A stretch of 64,000 bases of DNA from Candidatus Parcubacteria bacterium (GTDB lineage Bacteria; Patescibacteriota; Minisyncoccia; Minisyncoccales; JAGMDC01). Made by a program: the position numbers and the translations under genes. The stretch spans positions 29,895-93,894 of the forward strand of contig JAGLYZ010000004.1 of the NCBI GenBank assembly GCA_023131895.1. The letters are read 5' to 3'. Under the pieces are notes generated by a model. That model was not told where the DNA came from. It was given only the letters and a program-made list of their open reading frames with translations, and ran no database searches. Positions 2,626-62,050 of the stretch are shown here, piece by piece (positions within the stretch are counted from its first letter, which is position 1; each line of letters starts with the position of its first letter).

Positions 2626-3204
2626 ATGAAAAGACCTATTATTTTTATAACCATTACATCTTTAATCGTCATTTTACTGGCCTTTTTTGTGCTTTTGCCA
2701 AAATATGAAGAATTAGATGCTAAAGATTATCAACTTGAAGGAAGAAAAGTGGCTCTTGAAAAGATAAATGATTATTTTGAGGATCTTGCTTCTCAAAACA
2801 AAAAATTAGCAGAATACGAAGAATCAATGGCAAAAATTAATTCAGCTTTGCCAGACAAACCTGCCATGCCTTCAGTCCTGAATTTTATTCAAAGGACAGC
2901 TAATGAAAACGGGGTTTCTTTAACATCAGCAGCATTAAGCTCTTCAAGAAAAACAACAAAAACAACAAAGACAGAAGAAACAGGAGCATCAGACATCAAA
3001 GAAAACACATTTTCCATTAGTGTTGCTGGTTCTTATTCTTCTTTTAAAAACTTTCTTTCGGTCTTAGAAAAATCAGCGCGCTTGATTGAGACAGAGACCC
3101 TGACTTTTTTTTCCTTTGGAGGAATGACAATGTATACAGGAATGCCTGATTATTCTTTAGATACTTTTCTTTTTGAGTTACAAATGAAAGTTTATTCTTA
3201 TTAA
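2626..3204 (+). CDS. PilO-like bitopic membrane protein (assignment by position and topology only)
   Basis: N-terminal TM helix, coiled-coil region, position after the pilN-like gene. Confidence 0.45.
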   Translation: MKRPIIFITITSLIVILLAFFVLLPKYEELDAKDYQLEGRKVALEKINDYFEDLASQNKKLAEYEESMAKINSALPDKPAMPSVLNFIQRTANENGVSLTSAALSSSRKTTKTTKTEETGASDIKENTFSISVAGSYSSFKNFLSVLEKSARLIETETLTFFSFGGMTMYTGMPDYSLDTFLFELQMKVYSY

Positions 3205-6769: not shown

Positions 6770-7984
6770 ATGAAATTTAAATACAAAGCAAGAACAGAAG
6801 AAGGGGAAATGCAAGAGGGTGTTATAGAAGCAAGCTCAAAAGAAAGCGCTTCGGATATCTTAGAAAGCTACAATCTTTTTGTGGTCTCTTTAGTTGAATC
6901 CCAGCTTATTCCTGTTTGGTTAAGGGATATAAAGATTTTTAATATGGTAAGCCAGAAAGATGTAGTGATTTTTTCCAGACAGCTTTCTATGATGTTTGAG
7001 GCAAATGTTCCTTTAATAGAGTCGTTGGAAACATTGGGTTCGCAGCAAAAAAATCCTATTTTTAAAGAAAATGTCTTAGAAATAGCCAAAACAGTAGAGG
7101 GAGGAACATCTTTGTCAGAGGCATTTAGTAAATATCCGGAAGTTTTTTCCCCTTTTTATGTTAATATGATAAAGTCAGGCGAGGCATCAGGAAAGCTTTC
7201 TGAAGTTTTAAAGTATTTAGCAGATCGTTTGGAAAGGCAGTATGAGTTTATGTCAAAAATAAAAGGGGCAATGATTTATCCAATTTTAGTGATATTTGTT
7301 TCTTTTATTGTAATTGGCATAATTGTTTTCTTTGTTATGCCCCAGTTTGCTGGCATATTTGCCGCTTCTGAAAATGAACTGCCTTTATTCACCAAGATAG
7401 TTCTTGGCGCGTCTGAATTTTTAAGGAACTGGATTTTAATCATACTGGTTTTAGTTTTAGGTCTTTTAGGTTTTGCTTTTTTCTATCTCAGGAAAACTAA
7501 GGAAGGCAAGGAGTTTATAGACGAACATATATTAAATATTCCTGTTTTAGGCAATTTTTTGAAAATGTTTTATCTCTCACGTTTTGCCCAGAATCTTTCT
7601 ACTTTAATTGCAGGCGGCCTGCCTATTGCCCAAGCCCTGAGAATCTGCAGTGATATTGTTAATAATAATATCTATAAAGACATTGTTTTAAAGACCCAGG
7701 AAGGAGTTAAGAAAGGAAGAACCATAAACTCTGTTTTAGTCAGGTATCCTGATTATTTTCCGCCTATTTTTACACAGATGGTTGCTACTGGAGAAAAAAC
7801 AGGACAGCTGGAAGACAGCTTGAGCAAGATAGCTATTTTCTTTCAAAAAGAAGTAGAAAGGGCTCTTGATGTTCTTTTAAGCGTTATTGAACCAGTATTG
7901 ATTGTGTTTTTAGCTTTGATCGTAGGAATCATTGCAGCTGCTGTCTTTATCCCTATGTACGACTTCATTGGAACAGCAATGTAA
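6770..7984 (+). CDS. pilC: Type IV pilus platform protein PilC (T2SS F family)
   Basis: Two T2SSF-like repeats, three TM segments, about 400 aa, follows pilB/pilT. Confidence 0.9.
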   Translation: MKFKYKARTEEGEMQEGVIEASSKESASDILESYNLFVVSLVESQLIPVWLRDIKIFNMVSQKDVVIFSRQLSMMFEANVPLIESLETLGSQQKNPIFKENVLEIAKTVEGGTSLSEAFSKYPEVFSPFYVNMIKSGEASGKLSEVLKYLADRLERQYEFMSKIKGAMIYPILVIFVSFIVIGIIVFFVMPQFAGIFAASENELPLFTKIVLGASEFLRNWILIILVLVLGLLGFAFFYLRKTKEGKEFIDEHILNIPVLGNFLKMFYLSRFAQNLSTLIAGGLPIAQALRICSDIVNNNIYKDIVLKTQEGVKKGRTINSVLVRYPDYFPPIFTQMVATGEKTGQLEDSLSKIAIFFQKEVERALDVLLSVIEPVLIVFLALIVGIIAAAVFIPMYDFIGTAM

Positions 7985-8072: not shown

Positions 8073-8136
8073 TCACCCTGTTAAATCTTTCCGAAAATTT
8101 CGGAAAGAAAATCAAAGATTTTATTTAACAAGGTAA
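8073..8136 (+). repeat. Palindromic element PE copy 2 (intergenic, upstream of pilin gene; right arm degenerate)
   Basis: TCACCCTGTTAAAT ... ATTTAACAAGGTA with hairpins CTTTCCGAAA-AT-TTCGGAAAG and AAAATC-AAA-GATTTT. Confidence 0.8.
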
Positions 8137-8173: not shown

Positions 8174-8596
8174 ATGAAAAAATTTACTAAACGAGGTTTT
8201 ACCTTGATTGAACTATTAGTCGTCATCGCTGTTATCGGAATTCTGTCCTCAATCGTGTTGGTCTCCCTATCCGGCGCAAGAGATAAAGGTTATGATGCTC
8301 AAATTAAAGGAGAATTAGGTCAGGTAAGAGCAGATACAGAGATACATTATGATAATGCTGAGAGTTATACAGGATATACAATACCTACAAATTTATTGCC
8401 TCCTGCTTGCAGTGAAGATGGAGCTTATAATGTGGTAGTTTCAGCAGATGGACAGGATTACGCAGCTTGGGGAGATTTATGCTCATCAGCAGTAGATACT
8501 TGTGATTTTTGTATTGATTCTACTGGTGTAGCTTGTACGACTGTTGCAGCATCTCCCCACCCTACTGCTCTAGCTCCTGTTTGTGCTTGTCCATAA
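8174..8596 (+). CDS. Type IV pilin (prepilin-type N-terminal cleavage/methylation domain)
   Basis: Leader MKKFTKRG followed by FTLIELLVVIAVIGIL. C-terminal cysteines. Confidence 0.85.
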   Translation: MKKFTKRGFTLIELLVVIAVIGILSSIVLVSLSGARDKGYDAQIKGELGQVRADTEIHYDNAESYTGYTIPTNLLPPACSEDGAYNVVVSADGQDYAAWGDLCSSAVDTCDFCIDSTGVACTTVAASPHPTALAPVCACP

Positions 8597-9210: not shown

Positions 9211-9229
9211 ACGAAGGTCGGGCCTTCGT
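9211..9229. repeat. REP-like hairpin (left of the RAYT gene)
   Basis: ACGAAGG-TCGGG-CCTTCGT, a 7-bp stem. Confidence 0.75.
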
Positions 9230-9238
9230 TTATCTAAA

Positions 9239-9955
9239 ATGCCAACAAGAAAACACAAATTAGCTAATAATGAGATTTATCATATTATTATTAGAGGAGT
9301 AAATGACTCTGAGATTTTTAAAGATATAAATGATTATTATAGAGCAATTTTTTCCATTTACGAATTTAATACTATTAACTCTGTTGATATCAGACAAAAA
9401 AGAGAGCAACGAGCTCTCACAAAGAAAAACATAAACCAAGGTCGGGCCTTCGTTGATAATAGAGACTTGTTAGTAGAGATATTATGTTTTTGTTTTATGC
9501 CGAATCATGTTCATTTATTGCTCAAGCAGATAAAAGATGATGGAATAACTAAATTTATGAGAAAATTGGGTTCAGGTTATGCAAGTTATTTTAACAAAAA
9601 ATACAGTCGAAAAGGTTATCTTTTTCAAGGAAGATTTTTTCCGGTTCATATTAAAACAGACGAACAATTGCAAGTTATTTTTGCTTATATTCACGTTAAT
9701 TCCATATCTTTGATAGAGCCAAAATGGAAAGAAATTGGAATCCAAGATATAGAAAAAGTCATTAGTTTTTTAGAGGATTATAAATGGTCAAGTTATCCTG
9801 ATTATATTGGCAAGAAGAATTTTCCTTCAGTAACCCATAGAAATTTTATGTTAGAAATGATGAATAAAGAAAAAGGTTGCAAAGATTTTATTGAAAATTG
9901 GATTAGGTACAAAAGCAAGATTAAAAAATTGCCAGATATTGTCTTGAAGAGCTAA
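9239..9955 (+). CDS. REP-associated tyrosine transposase-like protein (IS200/IS605 TnpA Y1 family, RAYT-like)
   Basis: HUH motif in MPNHVHLLL. Tyr-containing AYIHVN motif typical of Y1 transposases. Flanked by REP-like hairpins in opposite orientation. Confidence 0.8.
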   Translation: MPTRKHKLANNEIYHIIIRGVNDSEIFKDINDYYRAIFSIYEFNTINSVDIRQKREQRALTKKNINQGRAFVDNRDLLVEILCFCFMPNHVHLLLKQIKDDGITKFMRKLGSGYASYFNKKYSRKGYLFQGRFFPVHIKTDEQLQVIFAYIHVNSISLIEPKWKEIGIQDIEKVISFLEDYKWSSYPDYIGKKNFPSVTHRNFMLEMMNKEKGCKDFIENWIRYKSKIKKLPDIVLKS

Positions 9956-9979
9956 ACGAAGGCCCGACCTTCGTTTAGC
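9951..9979. repeat. REP-like hairpin (right of the RAYT gene, inverted relative to the left copy)
   Basis: GCTAAACGAAGG-CCCGA-CCTTCGTTTAGC, a 12-bp stem overlapping the RAYT stop codon. Confidence 0.75.
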
Positions 9980-18413: not shown

Positions 18414-20948
18414 ATGAGTAATAATTCAGAAAAAGAAAAACCAAAAGAAAAAACAGCTGAAATTGGTTATATAAAGCCCAGAGAAATTACTGAAGAAATG
18501 AAGGAATCATATATTGATTATGCTATGTCAGTAATTGTTGCCAGGGCTTTGCCTGATGTTAGAGACGGTTTAAAGCCGGTTCATCGCCGGATTTTGTATG
18601 CAATGTTTGAAGATGGCCTGAAGCATGATGCTAAATTTAGAAAATCAGCTACCGTAGTGGGTTCAGTTTTGGGTCGTTACCATCCTCATGGCGATACTGC
18701 TGTCTATGATTCTTTAGTGCGAATGGCACAGGATTTTTCTTTGAGATATCCTTTGATTAAAGGTCAAGGAAATTTTGGATCAATCGATGGCGATCCAGCG
18801 AGCGCCATGAGATATTCAGAGGCGAAACTTTCCAAAATTGGTGAGGAAACATTAAAAGATATCACTAGAGAGACAGTGGATTTTAGGGATAATTATGACG
18901 GGACCAGGAAAGAACCGACTGTCTTGCCCTCGCCAATGCCCCAGCTTTTATTAAATGGTTCTTTAGGAATCGCAGTTGGCATGATGACTAATATCCCTCC
19001 TCATAATTTGTCAGAAGTGGCAAATGGAGCTATTCATTTAATTGATAATCCAAAGGCAACGACAGAAGACCTTTTTGAATTTATTAAAGGGCCTGATTTT
19101 CCTACTGGCGGCATCATCTATAATAGAAAAGAAATTATCAGCGCTTATTGCCAAGGCAATGGTCCTATAGTAATAAGGGGAAAAACAGAAACATCTGAAG
19201 ATAAAAAAGGCAGGAACAGGATTTTAATTACAGAAATCCCATATCAAGTTCAAAAATCATCTTTGGTAGAACAGTTTGCCAAGCTTGTTCAAGAAAAAAA
19301 AATCACTGGTATTAGAGATATTAGAGACGAATCAGACAGGGAAGGTATGAGAATTGTTATTGAACTTCAGCGCGATGCTTTCCCGCAAAAAATCTTGAAT
19401 CGGCTTTATAAATTTTCCGATCTTCAAAAAACATTTCATCTTAATATGCTTGCTTTGGTAGATGGTATCCAGCCAAAGGTTTTATCACTTTTAGAGGTCT
19501 TAAACTACTTTATAATTCATAGAAAAGAAGTAGTAATCAGAAGAACCAAATATGATTTGCGCAAAGCAGAAGAAAGAGCGCATATTTTGGAAGGCTTGCA
19601 TAAATGTCTGTCAAAGATTGATGAAGTGATTAAGACAATTAAAGCATCGGCTAACCGGGAAGATGCGCTGAAGAATTTAATGAAAAAATTCAAGCTTACT
19701 GAAATTCAGGCAAACGCTATTTTAGAGACAAAGCTTTCTGCCTTAGCAAAGCTGGAAAGAAAGAAAATTGAGGAAGAATTGGCAGAAAAGAAAAGGCTAA
19801 TAAAAGAATTAGAAGCTATTTTAAAAAGCCCGCAAAAAATTAAAGAAGTCATTAAAAAAGAGCTTAGAGAAATTATTGAAAACTTCGGCGATGAAAGAAG
19901 AACCAAGCTTGTTGTCCAGAAAGTCGGCGAAATTGCTGAAGAGGATTTAATTCCGCAGGAAGAAACGATTATTACTTTAACCCAAGGCGGGTATATAAAA
20001 AGAGTGAATCCTAATGTTTATAAGATCCAAAAGAGAGGGGGCAAGGGCATTATGGGGATGAAAACTTTAGGAGAAGATATTGTAGAACATTTCCTTTTTT
20101 GCCAAACCCATGACGAACTTCTTTTCTTTACTGATTCAGGAAAGGTTTTTAAAATTCCTGCTTATGAAGTTCCTGAAGGAACAAGGGTTGCTAAAGGCAG
20201 AGGAATTTTGAATTTTTTAGAGCTTACTCCTCAAGATAAGATATTATCTATTCTTCATTTTAAAAAAAAGGGAGACCAAGAAGATGAAATGAAGTATTTA
20301 GTAATGGCAACGAAAAATGGTATGATAAAGAAAACAGATTTAAGCGAATTTGAAAATGTAAGAAGGTCAGGCTTAATTGCTATTAATCTTAAAAAAGGTG
20401 ATTCGCTTAGAAGTGTAAATAGAACCTCTGGCCATGATGAAATAGCCTTTGTGACCAAAAAAGGACAGTCAATTAGGTTTAAAGAAGATAATGTGCGACC
20501 TATGGGCAGGACAGCTGCTGGGGTGACTGGAATAAGATTAAAGGGGGACGATGAGTTGATTGGAATGGACGTTATTCACCCTGTTAAATTGTCCCGAAAG
20601 TTTTCGGGACACCTCGCAAAGCGAGGATTTAACAGGGTAAAAATTCAAAACTATCTTTTAGTTGTAAGCGAGAACGGATATGGAAAAAGAACTGATTTAA
20701 AAGAATACAGATTACAGACAAGGGGCGGTTCTGGAATAAAGACAGCCAATATTACTGAAAAGACAGGAGATTTGGTTGCCTCTAAGGTTCTTTCTGGAGA
20801 GGAGGAAGATTTAATCGTTATTTCTCGAAAAGGCCAGATTATCAGAACTCCTGTTAATTCTATTTCTATAATCAGCAGGTCAACGCAAGGCGTAAGAATA
20901 ATGCGCTTGGACAAAGGAGATAAGGTGGCATCAGGCGCTTGTATATAA
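18414..20948 (+). CDS. gyrA: DNA gyrase subunit A
   Basis: [16 protein letters not shown], catalytic Tyr context AMRYSEAKL, GyrA-box-like region and C-terminal beta-pinwheel repeats. Confidence 0.97.
20576..20640 (+). repeat. Palindromic element PE copy 3 (in-frame inside the gyrA C-terminal domain)
   Basis: TCACCCTGTTAAAT-GTCCCGAAA-GT-TTTCGGGAC-A-CCTCGC-AAA-GCGAGG-ATTTAACAGGGTAA. Translated as [22 protein letters not shown]. Confidence 0.85.
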
Positions 20949-25011: not shown

Positions 25012-26211
25012 TTAATTTATTCTAAGATTAGCATTAACTTTAATATTTTTCCAATTTTGAGTTTCTTTTTTATGGAAATAAGCAGTTATGCCTATCATCG
25101 CAGCATTGTCAGTGCAGAATTTTTTTGTGGGAGCTAAAAAAACAAATTGGCTGCCAGTCATTGATAATTTCTTTTTAAATTGTTTTTGCAGTTCTTCATT
25201 AGCAGAAACGCCTCCGCCAAGAATAATTGTTCTTACTTTATAATCCTTTGCTGCTTTTATGGTTTTTTTAATTAAAATATCAATTACTGCTTGTTGTATT
25301 TCCTTGCACATTGCTTGAATATATTTTTCTTTTTTTACCCTGTTAAATAAAATCTCTGATTTTCTTTTGCTGGAAGCAAAAGATTTAACAGGGTGAACCG
25401 CATATAAAACAGCGGTTTTTAATCCAGAAAAACTAAAATCATAATCCTTGCTATACATCATCGGTCTAGGTAATTTTACCCTGTTAAATAAAATCTCTGA
25501 TTTTCTTTTGCTGGAAGCAAAAGATTTAACAGGGTGAATTTTAGATTTCCATTGCCGAGCTTGTTCCGCGATGGCTGGACCGCCAGGGTAACTAAGCCCT
25601 AAAATCCGAGCTGTTTTGTCAAAACATTCCCCTGCAGCATCATCTCTTGTTTCTCCGAGAATTTTGTATTTTCCAATATCTTTCATTAAAATCAATTGTG
25701 TATGCCCGCCGCTTACAACTAGGCATATCGCAGGAAATATTTTTTTTGGATTTTGGATTTTGGATTTCTCGCCAATTTGTAGGAGCAAATTGGCGAGAAT
25801 ATGTGCCTCAATATGGTTAACTGGTATAATTTTTAAATTCCATAAACGAGCTAAAGATTTAGCGAAGTTCACACCTGTCCATAAACAAGGTTCCAGGCCA
25901 GGGCCAGTAGTCACAGCAATCAAATCAATTTTCGGTTTTATAAAGTTTTTTATTCCTGCTTTTTTCAAAGCTTTTTTCAACACTGGTAAAAGATTTTTCT
26001 GGTGTTCTCTTTTTGCCATTGCCGGGTACACTCCTCCATATTTTTTGTGAATTTCTATCTGTGATGAAACAAAATTAGAGAGAATTTCTACCCTGTTAAA
26101 TAATTTCGCTTTTGGCGAAATTCCCCGATTTATCGGGGATTTAACAGGGTGAATTTTTAAAATACTAATACAAGTATCATCACAAGATGTTTCAATTGCT
26201 AAGATAATCAT
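25012..26211 (-). CDS. tsaD: tRNA N6-adenosine threonylcarbamoyltransferase TsaD, interrupted in-frame by three palindromic elements
   Basis: IETSCDDT, YGGVYP, HIEAH, VSGGHTQL, DDAAGECFDKTARILGL, PRPM, DFSFSGLKT, GGGVSAN, FCTDNAAMI. Confidence 0.93.
   Translation of the reverse strand: MIILAIETSCDDTCISILKIHPVKSPINRGISPKAKLFNRVEILSNFVSSQIEIHKKYGGVYPAMAKREHQKNLLPVLKKALKKAGIKNFIKPKIDLIAVTTGPGLEPCLWTGVNFAKSLARLWNLKIIPVNHIEAHILANLLLQIGEKSKIQNPKKIFPAICLVVSGGHTQLILMKDIGKYKILGETRDDAAGECFDKTARILGLSYPGGPAIAEQARQWKSKIHPVKSFASSKRKSEILFNRVKLPRPMMYSKDYDFSFSGLKTAVLYAVHPVKSFASSKRKSEILFNRVKKEKYIQAMCKEIQQAVIDILIKKTIKAAKDYKVRTIILGGGVSANEELQKQFKKKLSMTGSQFVFLAPTKKFCTDNAAMIGITAYFHKKETQNWKNIKVNANLRIN
25333..25397 (-). 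repeat. Palindromic element PE copy 4 (in-frame in tsaD)
   Basis: Identical over 65 nt to copy 5. Hairpins AAAATC-TCT-GATTTT and CTTTTGC-TGGAA-GCAAAAG. Read as HPVKSFASSKRKSEILFNRV. Confidence 0.9.
25474..25538 (-). repeat. Palindromic element PE copy 5 (in-frame in tsaD)
   Basis: Identical over 65 nt to copy 4, located 141 nt away. Confidence 0.9.
26088..26153 (-). repeat. Palindromic element PE copy 6 (in-frame in tsaD)
   Basis: Same arms. Hairpins ATTTCGC-TTTTG-GCGAAAT and TCCCCGA-TTTA-TCGGGGA. Read as HPVKSPINRGISPKAKLFNRV. Confidence 0.9.
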
Positions 26212-35534: not shown

Positions 35535-35608
35535 TGGACGATGCAGGACTCGAACCTGCGGCCTTTTCGATGTCACCGAAACGCTCTAGCCAACTGAGCT
35601 AATCGTCC
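35535..35608 (-). tRNA. tRNA-Val (anticodon GAC)
   Basis: Acceptor GGACGAT/ATCGTCC, D-arm GCTC-AGTTGGCTA-GAGC, anticodon stem TTTCG/CGAAA with loop GTGACAT, T-arm GCAGG-TTCGAGT-CCTGC. Confidence 0.9.
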
Positions 35609-35610
35609 AT

Positions 35611-35686
35611 TGGTGGGCGTGGCAGGACTCGAACCTGCGAACCTAACGCTTATAAGACGTTTGCTCTACCACTGAGCTACACGCCC
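35611..35686 (-). tRNA. tRNA-Ile (anticodon UAU), CCA encoded
   Basis: Acceptor GGGCGTG/CACGCCC, D-arm GCTC-AGTGGTA-GAGC, anticodon stem AACGT/GCGTT with loop CTTATAA, T-arm GCAGG-TTCGAGT-CCTGC. The variable region appears to be 6 nt. Confidence 0.75.
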
Positions 35687-35693
35687 AATTTAA

Positions 35694-36368
35694 TTATATA
35701 TTTTTACTTAAATAATAATCACTGATAGATTTCAATCCCATAAGTATTTTTTCCGTCAGCCTCGCATCCCCAATTTTCACATTACAAGTACCATGACCAA
35801 AACTTCCTTTATGATTTATACTCGCCTTATCTGTTTTTTTGATATAGGGTTTATTAAATTGGGAAATGGGAATATTTAAAATTTCTGACCAAAATTTTAT
35901 TTCTTTAGCAATATTCATATCTTTATATAAATGAAGATGAACCTTAAGTTTCTCCTTAGGTACCTTTAAACTTTTTATTAGCCAATCCATAAAAAATTTT
36001 ATAATTGAGGGATCTGTATTTGATACAGAAAGACGACACATACCAACTTTTGCTCCTTCTCCCCAATAAAGAAATAAACCGGCAAGATATAATTCTCGTT
36101 TATCAAAGGGAAAAATAATTCTTTTTTGTTCTTTACAAAATTTATTTAACCTTTCTTCTTTCTTTTTTCTTTTTGTTTCTCGGCATTTTTCAATTCTCTG
36201 CTCATTCCAGTCACGAAGTTCCCTTATTCTTTTTTTAGATAAAGGGTAATCTTTAAGCCAAGCACTCAAAGTACTTTTACTTACTTTTAATATCTTTTTG
36301 ATTTGGCTATAACTCATTCCTTGTTTTCTTAGAGTTAAGGCCATTTGATGATCTTTAAACTTAGCCAT
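35694..36368 (-). CDS. HTH domain protein with a LAGLIDADG-like motif (possible free-standing homing endonuclease)
   Basis: N-terminal HTH-like QGMSYSQIKKILKVSKSTLSAWL. YLAGLFLYWGEGAK resembles the LAGLIDADG/GEG motif. Sits between a tRNA gene and a duplicated tRNA 5' stub. Confidence 0.5.
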   Translation of the reverse strand: MAKFKDHQMALTLRKQGMSYSQIKKILKVSKSTLSAWLKDYPLSKKRIRELRDWNEQRIEKCRETKRKKKEERLNKFCKEQKRIIFPFDKRELYLAGLFLYWGEGAKVGMCRLSVSNTDPSIIKFFMDWLIKSLKVPKEKLKVHLHLYKDMNIAKEIKFWSEILNIPISQFNKPYIKKTDKASINHKGSFGHGTCNVKIGDARLTEKILMGLKSISDYYLSKNI

Positions 36369-54415: not shown

Positions 54416-55042
54416 TTATTCTTCTTTCAAAAAATCTAAATTTTTTGGCATTTTCTTTAAAGGTTTTTCAAAGCGCAGTTTTGGGACTTTTTTATAGTTT
54501 TTGTTTTTTATCCAGCCGGTTTTAGTATAAAAATAACCGGCGCCTCCCATTTTTCCTAATTCATCATAAATATTTTTATTTTTTATAGAAACCCAATTCG
54601 CGATTTTCAACTCTTTTTTTAATGGGTTGATAGTTATGGCAGCATATTTTGGCGGAAAAATTACGCATTCTCCTTTTTTTGCTTCAACAACAACAATGTC
54701 TTCAATAATCTTTCCTTTTGTTTTTTGCATTAAAAAAATTGCTTTTCCATCAAGTACAATATATAACTCTTGGAAATTTTTTGAGTTCATATTGCCTTTA
54801 GTCCTTACAAACTCTTTGCCCAGCATTCTTGCAGGAATAATCGTAATATCATATCTTAACCCTGTTAAATGCCGCTTTGCGGCACCCCGCCTTTTATGTA
54901 AAGGCTGGGTATTTAACAGGGTAAATTCTCCTTTATGTTTTATACCGCGATGCATATAATAAAGCTCAAGATTTGGTGCTGTTTTTACCCATTTCTGGTC
55001 ATAAAGAACTTTTTTCATGTCATTTAAATATCTTATTTCCAT
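54416..55042 (-). CDS. Cupin-type glucose-6-phosphate isomerase-like protein (metal ligands substituted), with in-frame palindromic element
   Basis: LGKEFVRTKGNMNSKNFQELYIVLDGKAIFLMQ and VIFPPKYAAITIN align by eye with the archaeal cupin PGI blocks GKEFFFTKGHFH...EVY and PPYWAHRTVN. Confidence 0.65.
   Translation of the reverse strand: MEIRYLNDMKKVLYDQKWVKTAPNLELYYMHRGIKHKGEFTLLNTQPLHKRRGAAKRHLTGLRYDITIIPARMLGKEFVRTKGNMNSKNFQELYIVLDGKAIFLMQKTKGKIIEDIVVVEAKKGECVIFPPKYAAITINPLKKELKIANWVSIKNKNIYDELGKMGGAGYFYTKTGWIKNKNYKKVPKLRFEKPLKKMPKNLDFLKEE
54857..54925. repeat. Palindromic element PE copy 7 (in-frame in the cupin gene, in a different reading frame of the arms)
   Basis: AACCCTGTTAAAT-GCCGC-TTT-GCGGC-A-CCCGCCTTT-TATGT-AAAGGCTGGG-T-ATTTAACAGGGTAAA. 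Read on the minus strand as TLLNTQPLHKRRGAAKRHLTGL. Confidence 0.85.
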
Positions 55043-57712: not shown

Positions 57713-59119
57713 CTATTCAAGATAATTCTTTTCAAACCACCAGGTTAGGATTTTTTGGACATCATCTTTGAGGTCGTCGGATTTTAAAAGAACAATTATA
57801 ATATTGTGCGAAGTGTTGTCTGGCAATGGCAATTCAAATATAAATATGCCGGTATATTTTGATTCTATAATAAATCCGGTTTTGCCGCCTAAAAAGTCCT
57901 TGCTTTCCGGAAAAATATTTTTGTTATGCAAATCTTCAAAATGAACTGTTCCAAAATCCTCTATTGTTTCTCCTTTGCTGATTTTCAAAAGAGGAGGCCT
58001 GGTATTGAAAATATATTGGCTCAAATAGAAAAGATCTTGTGCAGTAGAAACGTTTTTTTCGCTTAAGCCGCTCGGGTCGTCGTAAAAAGTATTTTTCATG
58101 CCAATCATTTTTGTTTTTTCATTCATTAATCTTATTGTTTTTTCTCTTCCTGAAAAGCGGGTTAAAATTTCAGCAGCGTCATTAGATGATTGAGTTAAAA
58201 GAGGATGAAGGAGTTCAACTAAATTGTATTTTTTTCCAGCTTCTAATCCTGGCGTAGAGCCATATGCTTTTAACATTTCTTTTGTAACCCAGATTGATTT
58301 TCTTAAATCATTATTCTCAATAGCAGCTATGGCAGTCATTAGTTTAGTTAAAGAAGCTATGGGCATTATTTTTTCAGGATTTTTTTCAGCCAAAATATAA
58401 TAATTATCAAGGTCGGCAATTAAATAAGATTCAGCAGATATTTCAGAAATAACGAAGGTCGGGCCTTCGTTGGCTAACGAAGGCCCGACCTTCGTTAGCT
58501 TGTCAATTATTAAAACAGGCATTTCTATCTCTGCAGCATTATAAATGTATTCTGCATCTTCATTAGAGAATCTAACACAACCGCCAGTATAATTGAATTC
58601 AGTTGATTGGCCATTGGAATAATACGGTTCTCCGTGAATATAGTATTTACCGTAAAAATTAATGCTCCATGGCATATAAACATGAGCAATATTGGAAAAA
58701 GCAGTTTTGTGTCCGGAAATCACTTTATAAAGACCCGAAGGAACTCCTCCCCAAAATTCAGGATCTCCTTTGGCTAAAATAGGAAGTTCTTTTTCTAATG
58801 CGCCATTTTTATAAATTTGAGCTTTCATTTCTGAAAGATTAATTTCTAAAAAATCTGTTTTTTTAGAAATAAATTCCTGCCTTTTTTCAAAACCAAAATC
58901 TTTTAATTGTTTTAGTTTTATTTCTTTTTGCTTGAGTCCTTGAAGCGTATCAGCGCTGAGAATAGTCTGATTACTTTTAGTCTCTACAAAAATTTCATTG
59001 CCAGGCATTATAAAAATTAAAAAAGCAAAAAGCCCGATTAAAAGGGCTAAAAAAATAATAGATATGCAGTTTTTTTTCAGTTTAGAACTAATCATCAGTT
59101 TATCCCGCACCTTTTTCAA
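57713..59119 (-). CDS. Fusion of an L,D-transpeptidase (YkuD) domain and a D-alanyl-D-alanine carboxypeptidase (peptidase S11) domain
   Basis: YkuD catalytic block YIHGEP...TGGCVRF. S11 SxxK motif PIASLTKLMT plus SSND (SxN). REP pair in-frame between the domains. Confidence 0.8.
   Translation of the reverse strand: MKKVRDKLMISSKLKKNCISIIFLALLIGLFAFLIFIMPGNEIFVETKSNQTILSADTLQGLKQKEIKLKQLKDFGFEKRQEFISKKTDFLEINLSEMKAQIYKNGALEKELPILAKGDPEFWGGVPSGLYKVISGHKTAFSNIAHVYMPWSINFYGKYYIHGEPYYSNGQSTEFNYTGGCVRFSNEDAEYIYNAAEIEMPVLIIDKLTKVGPSLANEGPTFVISEISAESYLIADLDNYYILAEKNPEKIMPIASLTKLMTAIAAIENNDLRKSIWVTKEMLKAYGSTPGLEAGKKYNLVELLHPLLTQSSNDAAEILTRFSGREKTIRLMNEKTKMIGMKNTFYDDPSGLSEKNVSTAQDLFYLSQYIFNTRPPLLKISKGETIEDFGTVHFEDLHNKNIFPESKDFLGGKTGFIIESKYTGIFIFELPLPDNTSHNIIIVLLKSDDLKDDVQKILTWWFEKNYLE
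58451..58497. repeat. Inverted pair of REP-like hairpins inside a CDS
   Basis: AACGAAGG-TCGGG-CCTTCGTT GGC TAACGAAGG-CCCGA-CCTTCGTTA. Translated (minus strand) within KLTKVGPSLANEGPTFVI. Confidence 0.85.
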
Positions 59120-61897: not shown

Positions 61898-62050
61898 ATA
61901 ACCTGATTGAGTATTATTAATCCTCAATCAGGAATTTCTAATTTCTAATTTCTAAACAAATCCTCTGGCTTTGCCAAATTTGGCATGGCCAGATAATTTC
62001 TAAACAAATTCTAAAATTCCAAACAAAACCCAAATTACAAAAAAAACTCA

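Follow-up and report, generated by a model that had tools for sequence, protein, structure and literature searches.

Rickettsia palindromic elements (RPEs), which measure about 100-150 bp and come from Rickettsia, reside in frame within protein-coding genes (PMC10969869). Here we describe a palindromic element at positions 54859-54922 of a 64,000-nucleotide stretch of a Candidatus Parcubacteria bacterium (contig JAGLYZ010000004.1; hereafter the window), where it lies within a minus-strand gene for a cupin GPI-like protein. We consider it probable, at roughly 0.72, that this segment is a copy of a small, non-autonomous palindromic mobile DNA element. RPEs resemble the element in being palindromic, in lying in frame within unrelated genes, housekeeping genes among them, and in being translated at positions compatible with the protein fold; copies of the element occur in frame in the GPI-like, TsaD (three copies) and GyrA genes of the window and in 18 further open reading frames (ORFs) elsewhere. 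Compared by description, however, each RPE family encodes a conserved peptide, whereas the element is 46-83 nt long (mostly 55-58 nt) and conserved in its arms alone. It is further set apart by two hairpins of free sequence, a three-way junction, a target at the centre of TTAA and its occurrence in several phyla, while RPEs are not known from outside the genus Rickettsia.

Repetitive extragenic palindromic (REP) sequences, BIMEs and REPINs are also very short hairpin repeats present in many copies, without target duplication and presumably handled as folded single strands. REPs, however, combine a conserved hairpin with a 4-nt tag, are extragenic and flank the gene of a REP-associated tyrosine transposase (RAYT), whereas the element has variable hairpins, a 12-nt outer stem and intragenic copies. 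MITEs (miniature transposable elements with inverted repeats) such as Correia, ERIC and Nezha are, like the element, dispersed, non-coding and bounded by terminal inverted repeats, and those of bacteria are occasionally fused in frame to ORFs (PMC10969869). MITEs normally also have a target-site duplication, a conserved interior and a recognisable parent insertion sequence with the same ends, none of which we found for the element; in particular, no target-site duplication of the MITE kind is seen when its filled and empty sites are compared.

Elements derived from IS200/IS605 move by HUH single-strand transposition, carry conserved subterminal hairpins and recognise a one-sided target. The element is like them in its lack of duplication, its short specific site, its folded single strand and its asymmetric ends, and unlike them in its variable hairpins and in the constraint on either flank, TT and AA. 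piggyBac, which targets TTAA, has CCC...GGG ends and duplicates TTAA on both sides; the element shares that target and those ends but is flanked by TTY-A and T-RAA, with no intact TTAA pair. The element shares features with MITEs, REP/REPINs and IS200/IS605-derived elements and fails a testable defining feature of each. Likenesses to the XerD arm of dif (TGTTAAAT) and to integron attC core sites (GTTRRRY/RYYYAAC) were dropped, as motif order and context did not fit. The family is apparently undescribed. In the searchable literature we found no description of the element, nor its 12-nt arm in full where the context would be relevant (ATTTAACAGGGT does stand in one unrelated paper); we also found nothing that links MITE, RAYT or REPIN with bacteria of the Candidate Phyla Radiation (CPR), and no REP-RAYT system in these bacteria.

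The element in the GPI-like gene

The host gene and the parts of the element are as follows.

54416-55042, minus strand: host gene, cupin GPI-like protein (PF06560) of 208 aa, from Pfam and homolog alignment
54858-54923, minus strand: inserted unit of 66 nt (core plus one base per side), predicted peptide FTLLNTQPLHKRRGAAKRHLTG, 22 aa
54859-54870: left arm ACCCTGTTAAAT, the same sequence in 13 of the 14 window arms
54871-54883: first inner hairpin, GCCGC-TTT-GCGGC on the plus strand; on the gene strand GCCGCAAAGCGGC, encoding AAKR
54884-54910: second inner hairpin, ACCCCGCCTTT-TATG-TAAAGGCTGGGT on the plus strand, 27 nt with one internal mismatch, from the fold
54911-54922: right arm ATTTAACAGGGT, from the arm 12-mer search

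A reading of the letters alone (the sequence-only reading) had already placed a palindromic element inside this minus-strand gene, and we confirm it at 54859-54922 as a pair of 12-nt inverted arms, ACCCTGTTAAAT/ATTTAACAGGGT, around two hairpins. The gene strand of 54856-54925 reads TTT-ACCCTGTTAAAT-ACCCAGCCTTTACATAAAAGGCGGGGT-GCCGCAAAGCGGC-ATTTAACAGGGT-TAA, and its codons TTT ACC CTG TTA AAT ... CAT TTA ACA GGG TTA give F-TLLNTQPLHKRRGAAKRHLTG-L. Both strands fold alike as single-stranded DNA. The first hairpin, whose fold was computed, is identical in the ortholog L121 and recurs as a module in further genomes, while in place of the second L121 has AATTCCGC-TTTT-AGCGGAATT.

The ORF call, which the sequence-only reading had left open to doubt, is right: the 208-aa protein matches PF06560 (GPI) with an E-value of 3.9e-26 and 91.9 bits against a cut-off of 20.7. 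This match starts at residue 58, directly after the element, which immediately precedes the conserved block LRYDITIIP...GKEF, as had been claimed of the first cupin block. In about 20 close homologs KKKGE is followed by LRYDITIIP with no insert between; among close homologs only an identical NCBI protein and P0002 (81% identical) carry the segment. Comparison with relatives that lack it therefore identifies a genuine insertion. The insert was placed by homolog alignments and a PDB sequence match, its position not being readable from the AlphaFold model of the protein (predicted local distance difference test, 41).

Aligned to PDB entries 1j3p and 1qxj, the GPI-like protein has TKGNMN for TKGHxH and YAAIT for WAHRT, so that the metal-binding His/His/Glu/His of the archaeal enzymes, which we take to be the metal-ligand positions of Pyrococcus PGI, is not conserved in it. 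Asn/Asn/Ala (TKGNMNSK, YAAIT) replaces His/His/His in the window protein and in most close CPR homologs, and a minority of GPI-like homologs retain TKGHxH; going by its sequence, the protein possibly lacks metal-dependent isomerase activity. Two other homologs carry inserts of their own. L207 (P0050) has a sister element near its C-terminus, with arms ACCCCGTTAGAAAA/TTTTCTAACGGGGT read as NPVRK...FSNGV, and L206 (P0120) has an unrelated two-hairpin insert of 30 aa in the same loop as the window copy.

Insertion between TT and AA without target duplication

The insertion itself can be read from a syntenic empty ortholog, L122, which has GGCGAA followed by TTAAGATATGAT / GGCGAA followed by TTAAGATATG. 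The window and L121 read GAATT-T-[core]-T-AAGA and are exactly 66 nt longer. Alignment of filled and empty sites gives GAA-TTA-AGA as the ancestral site, and the extra 66 nt follow GAATT and precede AAGA. A gain of the same kind is seen at tsaD site 1, where P0122, which is filled, exceeds the empty P0123 by 63 nt (61+2). From these gains of 66 and 63 nt it follows that the core with a single base at either end makes up the unit, which sits between TT and AA: the insertion falls in the middle of TTAA and leaves no target-site duplication. Duplication of TA, TT, TTA or TTAA was considered and rejected, since no such model accounts for the 66-nt gain together with the flanks.

Interiors and flanks were compared over 133 copies, taken from 120 database loci and from the window. 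On the left flank 83% of copies have T at -3, 82% have T at -2 and 77% have Y at -1, and the right flank mirrors this, so that the flanks TTY / RAA are inverted and not direct repeats; an A next to the core is found in just 16% of flanks. The core-adjacent bases are T...G, or C...A when the strand is flipped, in 72 copies and form Watson-Crick combinations in 16, which indicates that the ends of the element are asymmetric.

Mobility is seen in the orthologs of the GPI-like protein, TsaD and GyrA, among which presence and absence differ. Within the window, the tsaD copies at 25337 and 25478 have identical cores in unrelated flanks. CPR TsaD proteins span 344-487 aa, and the three window tsaD sites are occupied, empty or decayed depending on the relative. 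At site 3 both the window gene and P0122 (76% identical) are filled with interiors that differ, each identical to another copy in its own gene; the GPI-like gene copy and L121, similarly, have one hairpin in common and the other replaced. Such interior swaps fit either recombination between copies through arm homology or repeated insertion at a few permissive sites. TsaD homologs P0122-P0235 (alignment A3) also vary in length by inserts at several recurrent loops, many of which hold low-complexity peptides (SNFQFSIFNFQ, KSKIQNPK, IPNSKFQI) that resemble the translation products of a further DNA repeat.

Copies in the window and architecture of the family

With at most one mismatch allowed, the window contains 14 occurrences of the arm 12-mer where 0.45 would be expected, and none of 100 shuffles reaches 14. 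These arms make up seven elements with six different interiors, and a covariance model search of the window returned exactly these seven and nothing else. Besides the copy in the GPI-like gene they are:

20578-20638, plus strand: gyrA copy, 61 nt, in frame, gene 18414-20948
26090-26150, minus strand: tsaD site 1 copy, 61 nt, in frame, gene 25012-26211
25478-25535, minus strand: tsaD site 2 copy, 58 nt, in frame, from translation
25337-25394, minus strand: tsaD site 3 copy, 58 nt, in frame, core as at site 2, flanks unrelated
2560-2617: intergenic copy, 58 nt, filling the gap from ORF 2017-2556 to a pilO-like gene, 2626-3204
8075-8134: intergenic copy, 60 nt, with a mismatch in one arm; neighbours are pilC (6770-7984) and a pilin gene (8174-8596)

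The gyrA copy occupies a variable loop within the C-terminal domain, and the GyrA ortholog of L075 (71% identical) is without it. In gyrA and at the three tsaD sites the arms are decoded CAC CCT GTT AAA ... TTT AAC AGG GTA, giving (I/V)-HPVK...FNRV-(K/E), and the first core base takes codon position 2; in the GPI-like gene it takes position 1. Translation thus bears out the claim that the arm is read ACC CTG TTA AAT here and CAC CCT GTT AAA in tsaD and gyrA.

Each copy in the family consists of arms ACCCTGTTAAAT and ATTTAACAGGGT with two hairpins between them and zero unpaired junction bases, and would therefore form a three-way junction from either strand. As single-stranded DNA the copies fold with z-scores of -7.8 to -11.9. 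Among the 133 copies there are 127 distinct interiors, of whose bases a median of 77% are paired, nearly all as Watson-Crick pairs (CG 862, AT 651, GT 40, that is, 40/1553 G.U). A model-based alignment of 150 hits, which was fitted to the model and includes many copies as both strands, has 98.5% of its cells paired, compared with 77.4% when shuffled and 32-49% with slid partners, and 665 cells have changed on both sides, against 154 in shuffles. All four Watson-Crick types occur at 14/14 hairpin pairs, while the 12 arm pairs are nearly invariant. The rarity of G.U and the equal folding of both strands point to palindromy at the level of DNA and not to an RNA gene. Searched against Rfam 15, the sequence gave only tRNAs in gathering mode and only sub-threshold chance matches in E-value mode, with no family for the element.

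Arms are almost always paired around two hairpins: about 0.93 Mb of loci hold 151 such pairs and 21 arms that stand unpaired. DNA uptake sequences (DUS/USS), short family-specific motifs enriched mainly as single copies, were rejected on this pairing and on the spread over several phyla. Two variant arrangements were seen. At L005 2047-2165 two elements stand head to tail, the second starting 2 nt past the first, at GGGTgtCCCTGTTAAAT. WOR-3/Stahlbacteria copies (L030, L043, L057, L063 with three copies, L071 and L074) have the same 12-nt arms around an interior of 39-41 nt that forms no hairpins, yet is conserved between loci.

Distribution across phyla

A scan for exact arms, with one genome per species, returned at least 120 loci, and the family counts over 130 copies in genomes other than that of the window. 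Among the loci listed, most belong to Patescibacteria of many classes; the others come from Omnitrophota (several contigs per metagenome-assembled genome), WOR-3, Bacteroidota, Cloacimonadota, Spirochaetales and Desulfobacterota, the last including a 4.1-Mb Desulfatiglandales contig and a single-cell genome. Copies outside the CPR are mostly 46-52 nt long and have lineage-specific hairpins. All database copies retrieved have perfect 12-nt arms, as do all window arms but one, although the scan required exact arms and the invariance across phyla is partly an effect of ascertainment. Among 2.9 million viral contigs there was one match to the element, and phages were rejected as its vector on this count.

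Reading frames and selection on intragenic copies

Copies were scored as intragenic when they lay within an open frame of 110 codons or more that extended for 25 codons or more on each side. By this definition 23 of 135 copies are intragenic, the tsaD site 1 copy falling narrowly below the cut-off. The arm-to-arm length is 1 mod 3 in 22 of the 23, whereas non-coding copies number 45, 34 and 33 with lengths of 1, 0 and 2 mod 3. Nineteen intragenic copies use the HPVK frame, four the TLLN frame and none the frame with the stops TGT-TAA / ATT-TAA, the range for the two open frames being 19-20 to 3-4. Virtual excision, which removes N+core+N, found 22 copies open both with and without the element and six closed with it and open once it is removed, leaving at most five candidate gene-breaking insertions; L033, apparently an out-of-frame insertion, is in fact two adjacent genes that share a frame by chance. 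This strong enrichment of translation-compatible copies argues against removal at the RNA level.

The unequal use of the two open frames has its cause in the ends of the unit. Its outer bases are usually Y...R, so that in the TLLN frame the right junction, GGG-T-R-A, contains TAA or TGA, and the canonical element is open in just one frame per strand. The window GPI-like copy, L121, L034 and L040 escape this stop because the base after their core is a non-canonical T, giving GGG-TTA or GGG-TTT. The 19:4 skew arises because the canonical TLLN-frame junction makes a stop; the genic TTAA sites of the window (347 TTA-Axx and 284 xTT-AAx) would predict a ratio of about 55:45. As for the stop frame, only 8/639 genic sites are of the form xxT-TAA, since this is itself a stop codon, and the frame is scarcely available as a genic target; copies in it stand at the ends of genes.

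These results refine what had been proposed from the letters alone. Reading of the element in a second frame in the GPI-like gene is borne out, by way of a non-canonical end base, and this copy is a survivor in the rarer frame, allowed by the T after the core. That the element is open in two of its three frames holds for the 12-nt arms and fails for the whole unit, owing to the junction stop. Only those two frames are indeed observed, with unequal use; among the 23 intragenic copies the stop frame, far from being used equally, has none. The argument from selection is essentially sound, selection for open frames being evident from the lengths; the stop frame itself offers scarcely any targets inside genes.

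Selection is also visible in where copies persist. About 18% of copies lie inside ORFs, whereas the window is 90% coding and some 640 of its 738 TTAA sites are genic, which indicates that most coding insertions have been purged. Another 20-25 copies stand at gene ends, where the arm supplies the stop after ...HPVK or ...(S/L)PC. Most surviving copies are intergenic or at gene 3' ends, with the TAA of the arm giving the stop, and those within genes survive on two conditions only, that their length and frame leave the ORF open and that they fall in a variable loop at the protein surface. These intragenic copies are read through as 20-22 extra predicted residues. As to orientation, 11 of the 13 informative copies within genes carry the T...G strand antisense, compared with only 26 of 44 intergenic ones. 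The bias exists because AAA-TAA stops arise where an AATT-type hairpin follows the left arm; these stops account for it, and it was rejected as a sign of a strand-specific RNA.

Origin and maintenance of the element

The preferred reading, a non-autonomous mobile element, would work as follows. The arms would be the recognition site of a trans-acting enzyme, and the absence of duplication, the asymmetric ends (5'-T...G-3') and the strong fold suggest a single-strand reaction, of HUH type or similar, that would act on the folded element. If arms and fold suffice for mobilisation, many hairpin variants could coexist, and the arms could serve as homology for recombination between copies, exchanging their interiors.

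Several observations weigh against this reading. Among the Pfam-scanned window proteins (rpoB/rpoC and a few small ORFs lay outside the scan) there is no transposase besides a RAYT-like one, which was tried as the leading idea for the mobiliser and rejected, as its flanking repeats are of another family and its homolog loci rarely carry the element; no mobilising enzyme can thus be named. In the 0.93 Mb or so of loci, the few arms that stand unpaired do not bound any longer element, one with its arms more than about 140 nt apart. The TTAA-centre target draws on one clean empty site and two compatible ones, and the covariation alignment, as said, was fitted to the model. Orthologous tsaD copies, finally, are identical at 59/61 positions for site 1 and at 58/58 (L204) and 57/58 (L205) for site 2, while the rest of tsaD is 78-80% identical in the same comparisons and its third codon positions 61-65%. 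Neutral decay of a tolerated insert does not predict orthologous copies 97-100% identical in a diverged gene. The bases immediately outside the tsaD cores do vary among orthologs. The conserved copies are either refreshed, by conversion, re-insertion or homing-like spread, or selected for their structure.

This conservation is the ground for a further reading, to which we give a fairly low probability, namely that the element exceeds tolerated junk and is an actively maintained, structure-defined unit (12-bp stem and three-way junction), kept by a homing- or conversion-type drive or by a host function. Under a drive, intact copies would be re-installed at the same permissive TTAA sites. Active maintenance would explain both the 97-100% identity of tsaD copies against synonymous sites diverged by about 37% and the presence of the same 12-nt arms from Patescibacteria to Desulfobacterota and Bacteroidota.

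It seems rather unlikely that host selection keeps the element as a structured signal with a function in DNA or RNA, for instance as a site of binding or processing. Intragenic copies would in that case last through their function and not through mere tolerance. The far greater conservation of orthologous copies than of their host gene, the invariance of the arms across phyla and the strong covariation would suit such a signal, as would Saccharibacteria-like loci where a longer, repeated leader unit contains the element and stands immediately upstream of the start codons of unrelated genes. On the other hand, G.U pairs are rare (40/1553) and both strands fold equally, as expected of DNA palindromy; there is no Rfam match and no fixed distance to neighbouring starts or stops; both orientations occur, close orthologs differ in presence, and copies are depleted from coding sequence. 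A role as terminator or Shine-Dalgarno sequence was rejected, since the spacing to starts and stops is not fixed. The leader unit reads TAAAGGGCTT-[covarying hairpin]-ACAAACCTTT-[element]-GCTGAATTTTAT...AAAATTCGC-ATG, is found in the GC-richer loci L054, L079, L082, L089, L107 (2599-2687, 3064-3127) and L108, before rpsO and an NYN-domain gene among others, and looks like a portable promoter or leader cassette.

We think it quite unlikely that the element is of REP/REPIN type and mobilised by the RAYT-like Y1 transposase encoded at 9239-9955 (plus strand), inside the type IV pilus gene cluster, although this is the only transposase-like gene among the window proteins scanned. Its protein matches Y1_Tnp of Pfam (E 8.4e-11), contains the HUH and Y motifs and has the REP-associated tyrosine transposase family as its best NCBIfam match, and the element, as a hairpin with asymmetric ends and no target duplication, would be a fitting substrate. 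That NCBIfam score, however, is 42.7, below the cut-off of 80, and the gene is flanked in inverted orientation by another hairpin, GAAGG-TCGGG-CCTTC (GAAGGTCGGGCCTTC); the same flanking architecture, a variable stem with a CCCG loop, recurs at about 35 of 51 homolog loci. The ACCCTGTTAAAT element, by comparison, has four copies in 590 kb of homolog loci (55-67% identical) against seven in the 64-kb window, and three-way-junction repeats of any arm sequence are rare in those loci.

Very improbable is the idea that the segment, like an intron, is taken out of the RNA, or that its hosts are pseudogenes, so that frame would be irrelevant: a strong fold could in principle act as a processing signal, but the lengths are 1 mod 3 in 22/23 intragenic copies, stops are absent, T stands exactly where the canonical base would make one, and the host genes are otherwise intact, conserved and in some cases essential.

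Other repeats and features of the window

The hairpin beside the RAYT-like gene belongs to a second palindromic family, (A)ACGAAGG-TCGGG-CCTTCGT(T), at 9213-9227, 9437-9451, 9958-9972 and 58450-58497. Two inverted copies flank the gene in a REPtron-like arrangement and one partial copy lies within it. A 48-nt inverted doublet of this family stands in frame in a YkuD + Peptidase_S11 gene (57713-59119, minus strand), in the interdomain linker, and is read LTKVGPSLANEGPTFV. At the metagenomic RAYT-like homolog loci L123-L202, flanking inverted hairpins are usual, with variable stems and the loop CCCG(A/T/C).

Two further features were noted. A 224-aa protein encoded at 35694-36368 (minus strand) has an N-terminal HTH_23/HTH_7 domain of resolvase/transposase type, and its gene adjoins two tRNA genes at 35535-35686. 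The longest inverted repeat of the window, at 61942-62015 between groEL and a LemA gene, has overlapping 40-nt arms that are 75% complementary and is unrelated to the element.

Implications

Selfish DNA in protein-coding genes, best known from Rickettsia, would extend to the CPR and to several phyla, in the form of an element much smaller and differently built than the Rickettsia case. For annotation, inserts of 20-22 residues inflate and diversify the proteins of streamlined genomes, interrupt domain matches and mimic 'novel' sequence. Invariant arms, free hairpins that covary and insertion at the TTAA centre without duplication together point to a mobilisation chemistry that has no assigned enzyme. 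The conservation of orthologous copies beyond that of their host gene is a question that population metagenomics can address. If active maintenance is the true explanation, no smaller self-contained substrate would be known for a mobilisation system that spans phyla, and the element might serve to mark where episymbionts and their hosts have exchanged DNA.

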